23,844 bases of DNA from a virus (lineage: Duplodnaviria > Heunggongvirae > Uroviricota > Caudoviricetes), in the IMG/VR virus record IMGVR_UViG_2531839668_000007, one strand, 5' to 3'. Positions within the stretch are counted from its first letter, which is position 1. Every line of letters starts with the position of its first letter. Made by a program: the position numbers and the translations under genes. Under the pieces are notes generated by a model that was given only the letters and a program-made list of their open reading frames with translations, was not told the DNA's origin and searched no databases. Positions 3,918-6,571 of this stretch are shown here, piece after piece.

Positions 3918-4907
3918 TTACTTCATCCCGCCAATATTTTCCCACGTCCCGTCAGCACGCAGGATTTGCAGCGGTCTTACCACACACTGTATCTGCTTTT
4001 TATCCGCATCCAGTATCACCACCTGCGTGATTACCCTGGCCTGCTCCGGAATAATACCATTCTCATCTGACTCCAGGATGTCTGCCGGCCCCAGACGCAG
4101 TTGTGCTGTAAGTAACTCCCCGTGTTCACGGTCATCATGCTTTCCGTACCCGCACAGACGCTGCATAAGTTTTTTAGTACGTTCATGTCATTCTCCTGTT
4201 CTGCCTGTATCACTGCCCACTTCATCCAGCCCCTTAACATCCTGCCACGGCCCGTCACCAAACCTGACCTGCAAATGCTGAAACAGCCCCTGAACCTGTG
4301 TGGCATCTTTGGGGTCAAGAAAGGTCAGTCCGGTGATGAGCGCACCATCTGTACCCGGGAACCAGCCATTGCTGTTTGTCTCAATAATGCTCGCCGGCCC
4401 CAGACGAAAACGGATTTGTGTCTCCCCCGGGTCGCCCTTCGGTCCCTGAGGTCCGGTTGCCCCCACCGGGCCAGCCGCACCTGTTTCTCCTTTCGGTCCC
4501 TGTGGGCCTGCCGGGCCTGCCGCACCGGTATCTCCCTTTGGACCCTGTGGACCTGCATTTCCCGTCAGACCGGTCTCTCCCCGCTCTCCCCTGTCACCTT
4601 TCGGCCCCTGCGGGCCTGCCGGACCAGCATCACCTGCCGGTCCCCGTTCGCCGGTTGCCCCGACAGGGCCGGTGTCACCGCGCTCTCCCTTATCACCCTT
4701 CGGCCCCTGAGGACCCGCGGGCCCCTGTTCCCCCTTTGGCCCGGGAGGTCCCACCACGGTGGGGATTCGGTTTACGGCCTCTTCCGCCGCTATCCTGCTT
4801 TGTTCCGCTGACTGTGCGCTTTCTGCTGACTCCCGGGCTTTTTCTGTTGCGGTCGTTGCATCCCTGGCTGCATTACCGGCTGCACTTTCTGCCGTCTTTC
4901 TTGACAA
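3918..4907 (-). pseudogene. Side tail fiber remnant with collagen-like Gly-X-Y repeats, interrupted by an in-frame TGA
   Basis: ORFs 4188..4907 and 3918..4166 are in the same minus-strand frame, separated by a single TGA (plus 4188-4190). The upstream part has many GPxGPxG triplets and a C-terminal domain (RFRLGPASIIETNSNG...) that is repeated in the downstream part (LRLGPADILESDENG...). The frame stays open upstream to about 5030 with Ala/Ser-rich fibre-like sequence but no credible start. Confidence 0.6.
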
Positions 4908-6571
4908 TTCAGCTTCTGCTGCACTTTGTGATGACTCACTGGCTTTTTGAGCGGCCGCAGAAGCCGAGGACGAGGACGCATCCTCTGACTGCTTTGCTGA
5001 GGCTGCACTTTCTGCCGCCTGTTCGCTCCTGATGAAGATACGGTGAATGTCAGTGTCAGCGTCCCCTGTCCGGCAGGCATATCTATAACTGAGGAAAATA
5101 CGCCCTGAGCATCCGTCGTGGACTGATTAAAAATCTCCTGACCATTGCGGGTCACTCTTAACCGGCAGGTTGAATACCAGTATGACTGTTGGTTATTACT
5201 GTTGAAATTCTCATGCTTACCACCGCGGAATAACACTGGCGGTATCATGACCTGCCGGTCAAACTTCTGATCATCACTGATTCTTACCGTGATGGTGCCA
5301 CTGGCATAACTGTTCGTGCGGGGGAAAGACTTGCTGACCGTTTTGACAATATCGCCTTCAATCTGGTTGGCTGACAGTTTCCCCTTAATCTGACAGTTTT
5401 CATTAATCGTGACATTGTTGAGCGTCCCTGAATTTGCATTCACATTACCGCTGATATCCGCATTTTTAGCGGTCAGCTTTCCGTCTGGTGTCAGGGAAAA
5501 TGCCGGCGGATTTCCACCGCTGGTAATGGTGGGGGCCGTCAGACGCTTCAGGAACACGTCGTTCATGAATATCTGATCGCCCTGACCAACAAACATTGGT
5601 CTTGTGTTGCCATTAGACGGATCAATAAACGCAATACGATTGGCGGCAACCAGAAACTGGCTCAGTTTGCCTTCCTCCGTGTCCTCCATGCTGAGGCCAA
5701 TACCCGCGACATAATGTTTGCCGTCTTTGGTCTGCTCAATTTTGACGCCCCACATGGCATTCCATTTATCGTTGGCGTCCTTCCACTCTTTCGAAAACTC
5801 CTCCAGTTTGCTGGCGTTATTCTCCGTCAGCTCGACTTTTTCCAGCAGCTCCTTGCCGAGATGGGATTCGGTTATACAGCGCATCGCCGAGCAGAAATCA
5901 CTGAGCACATCCCACGCCTTACGTTGTGTGGTCAGGTAGCACTGTTTCACATCGATAATTTCGGTGTATGACGACCAGAGCGTTTTGTTCTGCAGCTGGT
6001 CTGTGGTGCTGTCCGGCGTCATCCTGCGCATCCGGATACTGAACGGGCGCGGCGGCAGGTTATCCACCACCACCGAGGCCAGATACTGTGAAGTGGTTTT
6101 ACCCTTAATGGTGATGTCTTTTTCCGTCACCCAGCCACCGTTACGTTGTATCTGAACCAGCAGGCGGACTTCCGATGGATTCCTGTCCCCCTTTGAGGTG
6201 GTTTCCACCAGTGCCTGCACACCGAAGGTAAAACGCAGTCGGTCAATGTTTGCCGACGTGATGGTCCGGGTGATCGGCGTGTCGTATTTCACTTCCGTAC
6301 CCAGCACCGTCTCGGAGCCGGAGGATTCAAATCCCTCCGGCGGAGTCTGCTCCTGCTCACCAGCCCGGAACACCACCGTGACACCGGCGATGTTGGTATT
6401 CCCCTCACTGTCCAGCACCGGCGTACTGTTCAGCAGCACGCTTTTTAATCCATCCACCGGACCTTCAATCGGCCCTTCACTGATGGCGTCTATCACGCTC
6501 AGCATCTGGGATGATTTCAGGTTGTCCTTCGCTTCGCGCGGGGTATGCCCCTTACTGCTGCCTTTACCCAT
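4790..6571 (-). pseudogene. J: Lambda J-like central tail fiber / host specificity gene with two in-frame internal deletions and an out-of-frame 3' fusion into the fibre gene
   Basis: The N-terminal ~220 aa ([20 protein letters not shown]...EIIDVKQCY) match lambda gpJ as recalled, then jump to [20 protein letters not shown], then to [18 protein letters not shown] and the C-terminal domain. After ...[10 protein letters not shown] the frame runs into the Ala/Ser-rich fibre region in the wrong frame, giving a low-complexity Q/R/K/P tail. 593 aa versus about 1130 aa for lambda J. Confidence 0.75.

Follow-up and report, generated by a model that had tools for sequence, protein, structure and literature searches.

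A lambda-type J gene cut down by deletions with short or no homology, a probable pseudogene remnant in an effector-carrying Escherichia coli prophage

The J' reading frame and its junctions

The window analysed here, i.e. the whole 23,844-nucleotide stretch of the tailed-phage record IMGVR_UViG_2531839668_000007, carries on its minus strand a shortened version of J, the tail-tip gene of lambda-type phages. This chimeric open reading frame (ORF), referred to as J', lies at 4790-6571, encodes 593 amino acids and is the sole ORF at these coordinates in the six-frame ORF list. It is composed of 517 J-derived residues (J 1-212, 329-348 and 822-1106) followed by 76 residues of out-of-frame read-through into the side tail fibre gene stf. 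From its start, J' consists of J nucleotides 1-637 (window 5935-6571), encoding the first hub strands and the FNIII-A domain (PF24801, residues 86-207); junction 1 (5935-5938), with a TACC microhomology; an island of 61 nucleotides (5874-5934, J nucleotides 986-1046) encoding residues 329-348, with which the Phage-tail_3 hub domain opens (20 residues); junction 2 (5874-5875), with an AT microhomology; J nucleotides 2466-3317 (5022-5873), encoding some of the alpha-helical shaft, then the central straight fibre (PF09327) and an incomplete receptor-binding domain (PF12421); and junction 3 (5021-5022), where there is no microhomology and the J frame enters stf out of frame. The stf remnant, stf' (4188-5021, also minus strand), is without a start, comprises codons 161-437 of the side tail fibre, collagen-like repeats and Phage_fiber_C included, and is accompanied on the same strand by a small fibre C-terminal gene. 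PGAP labels the J-derived part of J' (about window 6571-5033) as a pseudogene without a C-terminus, and stf' as a pseudogene without an N-terminus.

The deletions at junctions 1, 2 and 3 (del1, del2 and del3, respectively) were mapped against the intact prophage of strain 2013C-4991 (locus L003, NZ_CP027355.1), the J gene of which is 3399 bp long and encodes 1132 amino acids. The gene order there is J, lom, stf (1314 bp) and nleB2-nleC-nleH1-nleD, with a full tail module and with nleD-ybhB-bioA on one side. Junction positions were obtained by BLAST against this locus followed by manual registration, and the protein was aligned with the J proteins of lambda and of an intact E. coli prophage. 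Window 6999-5935 corresponds to L003 12001-13065 (99.35% identity), window 5934-5874, the island, to J nucleotides 986-1046 with two synonymous differences from L003, window 5875-5022 to L003 14892-15745 (100% identity) and window 5021-1 to L003 17038-22059 (99.98% identity). Del1 removed 348 bp, J nucleotides 638-985 (codons 213-328), at the TACC, which extends imperfectly to TGC(G)TACC; del2 removed 1419 bp, J nucleotides 1047-2465 (codons 349-821), at the AT. Both sizes are multiples of 3 and both deletions are in frame, together taking out 589 J codons, and the protein jumps from ...IIDVKQCY212 to L329TTQRKAW... and from ...SAMRC348 to I822TESHLGKEL.... Del3 removed 1292 bp, comprising J nucleotides 3318-3399 (the last 26 codons), lom and stf nucleotides 1-480, and is out of frame: after J nucleotide 3317 (window 5022), the sequence jumps to stf nucleotide 481 (window 5021), runs through 76 wrong-frame stf codons and reaches a stop at 4790. 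No insertion sequence (IS) was found at any of the mapped junctions.

A gap in the BLAST alignment hinted at 347 + 1 bp at del1, i.e. at a compensating 1-bp indel beside it; manual registration gave a clean 348-bp deletion at TACC. The two single-nucleotide polymorphisms (SNPs) by which the island differs from L003 prompted the question of whether it was foreign or had been template-switched from another J copy. However, among 136 records that match the 63-nucleotide island sequence at 99% identity or better, intact J genes carry it unchanged (100% identity) and, searched alone, it has 4,207 matching records, all of those among the matches listed lying in J genes. Since the same allele is present in intact J genes, the island SNPs are ordinary allelic variation. 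Judged from these alignments, J' is confirmed as a lambda-type tail-tip gene J shortened by real deletions from a full-length gene. A sequence-only reading of the window had proposed two in-frame internal deletions in J and a 3' end running out of frame into fibre sequence. The former is reproduced in the protein alignments to lambda J and intact prophage J and in the DNA mapping against L003, and the latter in the 76 wrong-frame stf codons; the microhomology it suggested looking for is present as TACC at del1 and AT at del2, while its estimate of roughly 540 codons removed becomes 589 by mapping.

Domains lost and further decay in related strains

In cryo-EM structures, lambda gpJ comprises FNIII-A, FNIII-1, FNIII-2, a helical shaft with helix segments 809-840 and 841-861, a beta-prism central fibre and an Ig-like receptor-binding domain, and the trimer formed by its hub seals the tail cone together with gpL, gpM and gpI (PMC10721106, PMC11101478); FNIII-A spans residues 72-215 in the lambda tail-tip structure (PMC10721106). 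J' is homologous by descent to lambda gpJ (NP_040600; PDB 8iyk, 8k35, 8xci), with which its three J segments are colinear, and is 80% identical to lambda J and 96% identical to E. coli prophage J, the best PDB match having E = 1e-269. It differs from gpJ, however, in being without 589 internal residues (HDII, HDIII and HDIV together with the OB insert, FNIII-1, FNIII-2 and the beginning of the helical shaft) and without the last 26 receptor-binding residues, in its 76-residue frameshifted tail, and in having no partner tail genes.

The Pfam domains of intact J are FNIII-A, Phage-tail_3 (hub), Ig_J, Ig_J_second, Phage_Tail_Tip and a full Ig_GpJ_C. Two of these are kept in J': FNIII-A (E = 8e-42, residues 86-207) and Phage_Tail_Tip, the central fibre (PF09327, E = 5e-34, residues 256-383). 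The receptor-binding Ig_GpJ_C is incomplete, with a match ending at profile position 107 of 135 and the last 26 J residues replaced by the 76 frameshifted ones, so that the receptor-proximal C-terminal region, said in the sequence-only reading to be kept, turns out to be truncated. Phage-tail_3 (PF13550), present at 330-498 in intact J, was not detected in J' by Pfam, its first 20 residues being what is left, and neither Ig_J (PF24421) nor Ig_J_second (PF24489), both found in intact J, was found in J' by the same search. Altogether, J' is without essentially all hub domains (HDII-HDIV), FNIII-1/2, the shaft start and the end of the receptor-binding domain.

On the same strand, upstream of J', the I' remnant (6632-6999), which is the C-terminal part of tail assembly protein I, is joined directly to the A' remnant (6997-7304), the first ~100 codons of a lambda-type terminase large subunit, and none of the partner tail genes H, M, L and K is present between A' and I'. 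Because the hub, FNIII-1/2 and the receptor-binding end are lost, gpL, gpM, gpH and gpK are missing and gpI is truncated, J' would not be a working tail-tip protein, and its 593-residue product, if made at all, would be devoid of tail-tip function.

FORC 064 and the O157:H16 strain 98-3133, both E. coli, match window 4100-7400 at 100% identity. For each junction, a 44-46-mer spanning it and unable to seed on one flank was used to query 5,426 complete E. coli genomes. Junction 1 (44-mer) was found in four, FORC 064, 98-3133, Z1323PEC0012 and STECUZB006. Junction 2 (44-mer) and junction 3 (46-mer) were each found in five, i.e. these four and MFDS1001074, and the A'/I' junction (46-mer) also in five, the same four and BA92. 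The J deletions are thus private to a very small lineage. The exact 593-residue J' protein occurs on 8 contigs in a collection of 15 billion proteins.

Some relatives have lost more of the gene. In MFDS1001074, a 3.1-kb deletion takes the lysis genes, Nu1, A', I', the J' start and the whole N-terminal block, and leaves junctions 2 and 3 in place. In BA92 (O2:H16, NZ_CP176406.1), a deletion of 2.3 kb in window coordinates (6404 / 4118) leaves J codons 1-56, the last of which is fused in frame to the final 65 codons of the small fibre C-terminal gene, resulting in a 121-residue ORF (9452-9817). In P0015, a protein from a draft genome, J' ends at residue 290 and then runs in frame into the stf C-terminus. 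The sequence-only reading had asked whether the same deletions are fixed across strains: they are not, being present in four to five of the 5,426 complete genomes, while MFDS1001074, BA92 and P0015 carry additional deletions. Together, the relatives show further decay of J', not its conservation.

The surrounding prophage

The element is a lambdoid prophage at att-lambda (ybhC / ybhB-bioA), with its integrase adjoining ybhC at the far end of the window. Judged by its effector cargo and its att-lambda site, the described prophage that it most resembles is Sp3/CP-933K, for which 2013C-4991 and O55:H7 CB9615 are named as intact-tail relatives. Truncated and fused late-gene remnants, produced in lambdoid prophages by illegitimate deletions, are routine in E. 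coli cryptic prophages, K-12 DLP12 nohD-aaaD being one example; this remnant is the same kind of object as J', at a different locus and in a different lineage. The Sp3 prophage of O157 Sakai has no repressor or replication functions, and is neither excisable nor packaged (PMC2669165). The 2013C-4991 sibling resembles the window prophage in occupying the same att-lambda site by ybhB-bioA, in carrying the same nleB2-nleC-nleH1-nleD cargo and in having near-identical J, stf and cargo DNA. The tail genes and a full-length J are kept in the relatives compared, and in Sp3 according to the columns for tail and host specificity in the table of PMC2669165, whereas the window prophage has been stripped of genes A to I, the greater part of J, lom and the beginning of stf and, unlike 2013C-4991, has a lambda/DLP12-type Nu1-A'.

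The A'/I' fusion is out of frame and has a TAT microhomology (window ~6999-6997); the head and tail genes between the two are gone, about 14 kb on lambda's scale. This junction was mapped against lambda A and the L003 I gene. On the A' side, 2013C-4991 was rejected as a reference, its terminase being of another type with no match to window 7000-7744, and lambda A was used. The Nu1-A' module (window 7000-7744), which includes a Nu1 fragment at 7279-7710 on the minus strand, is of lambda/DLP12 type (Pfam Phage_Nu1 and GpA_ATPase), and the terminase module of 2013C-4991 (locus L006) is unrelated to it. The packaging genes are thus mosaic between the window prophage and its near-identical sibling. 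The Nu1 homologue is named nohD by PGAP in one strain, and A', I', J' and stf' are all called pseudogenes by PGAP in FORC 064.

Identity between the window and FORC 064 does not hold throughout: it holds for window 1-7724 only, and upstream of 7724 the two differ by an Rz'-Nu1' deletion, a difference in the rrrD region and an IS66 insertion. Compared with FORC 064 (locus L001), ~1.5 kb is absent at window 7718-8634 (a Rha-like gene, ylcI and the Nu1 N-terminus), and the window keeps 428 bp of the rrrD/holin region that are absent from FORC 064. The window and FORC 064 thus carry different strain-specific deletions in the lysis-packaging interval. The IS66-family element (window 18247-20945; tnpA, tnpB and a 523-residue DDE transposase) lies in the early-left region of the prophage, and at its borders 8 bases overlap in the alignment, as a putative target-site duplication would. 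FORC 064 has no IS66 at this site and has an identical IS66 copy beyond nleD.

Fragments of ninG and bet (ninG' and bet') abut head to head on opposite strands at window ~14868-15526 (FORC 064 record 3284802-3285460), from which it follows that the whole immunity and replication region is missing, consistent with the reported lack of a repressor and of O/P in Sp3. Together with the A'/I' fusion and the IS66 insertion, this bet'/ninG' fusion bears out the description of the prophage, in the sequence-only reading, as an otherwise decaying one. Amid the wrecked phage structural genes, the effector cargo is full length: nleB2 (3741-2761, minus strand, 326 amino acids) and nleC (2727-1708, minus strand, 339 amino acids) are intact, and nleH1-1 (window 1-882, 882 bp) is complete. 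In MFDS1001074, nleC has an internal stop. The gene for a lipid A deacylase, lpxR (plus strand, window 11658-12617; Pfam LpxR, E = 7e-40), forms a moron on the opposite strand, between a truncated antiterminator fragment and ylcG-Q; it is intact here and in every related strain examined.

Neutral decay and its alternatives

J' is very probably a non-functional pseudogene remnant in a cryptic, immobile Sp3/CP-933K-like prophage that has been cut down by illegitimate deletions. RecA-independent illegitimate recombination is an established deletion route in E. coli, and it is suggested here because the junctions have 0-4 bp of microhomology and no IS. The prophage would have been whittled by such short- or no-homology deletions, by replication slippage or short-homology end joining, in events that would include the A'/I' deletion (TAT), del1 (TACC), del2 (AT), del3 (no microhomology), the bet'/ninG' fusion and the Rz'-Nu1' deletion, along with the IS66 insertion, leaving the effector cargo nleB2, nleC and nleH1-1 untouched. 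The deletions were most likely neutral, and the best reading is neutral decay of a prophage retained for its nleB2-nleC-nleH1-nleD cargo. Within this explanation, del1 and del2 may represent two events or a single complex template-switching event, in which replication jumped at TACC, copied 61 nucleotides and jumped again at AT. That junction 1 is always accompanied by junction 2 among complete genomes, that the retained island is only 61 nucleotides long and that both junctions have short microhomology all speak for a single event. In MFDS1001074, on the other hand, junction 2 is present although junction 1 lacks its left side, which also fits del2 having preceded del1, and for a lineage this rare, finding no intermediates in ~5,400 genomes says little. 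We therefore see the single event as plausible but short of probable.

Four observations weigh against simple decay. The reading frame continues uninterrupted through the two internal junctions. Of six fusions in the prophage family that allow the frame to be assessed, four (del1, del2, BA92 and P0015) are in frame and two (del3 and A'/I') are not, giving a binomial P of about 0.10. By a post hoc count, a domain border defined by Pfam or by structure is found within about 6 residues of three of the four internal breakpoints: residue 212 is near the FNIII-A end (207-215), 329 near the Phage-tail_3 start (330) and 822 near the Ig_J_second end (818). Lastly, a metagenome contig (L009; ENA ERZ1743084 NODE_773, 4656 bp, 3.3x coverage) encodes a doubly deleted J of 543 amino acids. 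In this contig the A'/I' fusion, del1 and del2 are present, the J 3' end and lom are intact and the stf start is kept; compared with both the window and L003, the contig shows a single SNP in their common J 3' block and seven clustered SNPs in stf. Regarding the frame, two deletions would both be in frame with a chance of 1/9 (1/3 each), and under the one-event variant the in-frame outcome is a single 1-in-3 draw. P rises to about 0.21 without P0015, which came from a protein search and hence one blind to variants that break ORFs. Moreover, the 517 J-derived residues contain one amino-acid change relative to the intact copy, with few base differences; since the sequence is almost undiverged, there has been no time for stops to arise, dN/dS is unmeasurable, and the open frame is uninformative on constraint. 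The in-frame retention singled out as notable in the sequence-only reading thus loses its force, the hub and its partners being gone and sister strains decaying further, and the in-frame state of del1 and del2 is best ascribed to chance. No weight is given to the closeness to domain borders: the thresholds were set with the data already in view, and the fourth breakpoint falls within the hub domain.

Three of these observations are what a selected, stand-alone J would draw on. In such a scenario, a protein made up of FNIII-A and the central fibre, joined by a 20-residue linker, and of the receptor-binding domain would form a trimer via the fibre and act alone, for instance in receptor masking or superinfection exclusion, the frame having been kept open by selection. 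The two in-frame deletions, the breakpoints close to domain borders and the 543-residue form with an intact C-terminus on L009 point this way, as does the engineered gpJ713 (J from residue 713), a hub-free protein solved as a trimer alone and with LamB (PMC11101478; PDB 8xcj). This hub-less fragment of shaft, central fibre and receptor-binding domain (PDB 8xcj/8xck) aligns to J' 232-514; however, gpJ713 binds LamB and possesses two FNIII domains and an entire receptor-binding domain, neither of which J' has. The window protein has lost the last 26 residues of its receptor-binding domain and gained 76 junk residues, in sister strains the ORF has been stripped of its start or of most of its length, very few genomes carry the form (4 of 5,426), there is no sequence divergence by which to gauge constraint while the in-frame chance is 1/9 to 1/3, and L009 is a 3.3x contig with a SNP cluster hinting at recombination or chimerism. 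Selection for such a protein is accordingly very improbable. Equally hard to credit is the possibility that out-of-frame deletions were counter-selected via transcriptional polarity on the downstream effector genes: although four of the six assessable fusions are in frame, the P-values of about 0.10 and 0.21 given above, the out-of-frame del3 and A'/I' in every strain listed for junction 1, and the J' stop ~1 kb upstream of nleB2 all argue against it. Finally, the sequence-only reading had itself allowed that the gaps might not be deletions at all and that J' belongs to a naturally shorter J family. The uninterrupted ORF is the only pointer to this. The flanks are 99.3-100% identical to the intact, 1132-residue J at the DNA level and the junctions are base-precise; the junction searches match 4-5 genomes, compared with 4,207 records for the island alone; and the 27 members of the J' 90% cluster are all from E. 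coli, those inspected being the same sequence or truncations, with no diverged short homologues found. DNA identity and junction mapping thus refute a short family, which has next to no chance of being correct, and uphold the deletions.

L009 may be a true intermediate, a recombinant or a chimeric assembly. As an intermediate it would put del3 last, and a clean short J may then have persisted for some time; its status as a clean intermediate, with del1 and del2 preceding del3, is left uncertain by the 3.3x coverage and the SNP clustering. At junction 1 itself, the right endpoint of the 3.1-kb deletion in MFDS1001074 (NZ_CP106929.1, about 7995-8005) falls inside the TACC: ...CTCTGTTCCTG-TAC (window 9040) is joined to TAC-CTGACC... 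(window 5938), with TAC as the microhomology (window 9037-9040 / 5935-5938). Either a later deletion hit the older junction 1 exactly, or J nucleotides 982-985 may have been used twice; on an ancestor without del1, the microhomology of the MFDS1001074 deletion would be GTAC, 4 bp. The chance of a shared endpoint is ~1e-3 raw and ~0.03 after ~24 endpoint-by-junction comparisons. DNA folding at junction 1 and at the left breakpoint of MFDS1001074 gave z-scores of 0.0 to 0.75, i.e. no unusual hairpin, and these ordinary values argue against a hotspot based on a hairpin or secondary structure at either site. The shared breakpoint is recorded here as a coincidence, not a finding. A combined account, with a selected stand-alone receptor-binding J in its clean form of 543 amino acids (L009) and J nucleotides 982-985 as a recurrent breakpoint, is highly doubtful.

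The preferred explanation is ordinary deletional decay of a cargo-retaining prophage, and the remnant is of a kind already known and already marked as a pseudogene in RefSeq; as such, it matters little beyond bookkeeping. If true, repeated use of the junction 1 site as a breakpoint would offer a minor clue to deletion hotspots, its present basis being one coincidence. What the locus does provide is a clean, base-resolved case of an effector-carrying lambdoid prophage whittled by short-homology deletions, with several decay states in close strains. It also carries a caution: a frame that stays open across deletions is no sign of function when the sequence is too young for stop codons to have appeared.

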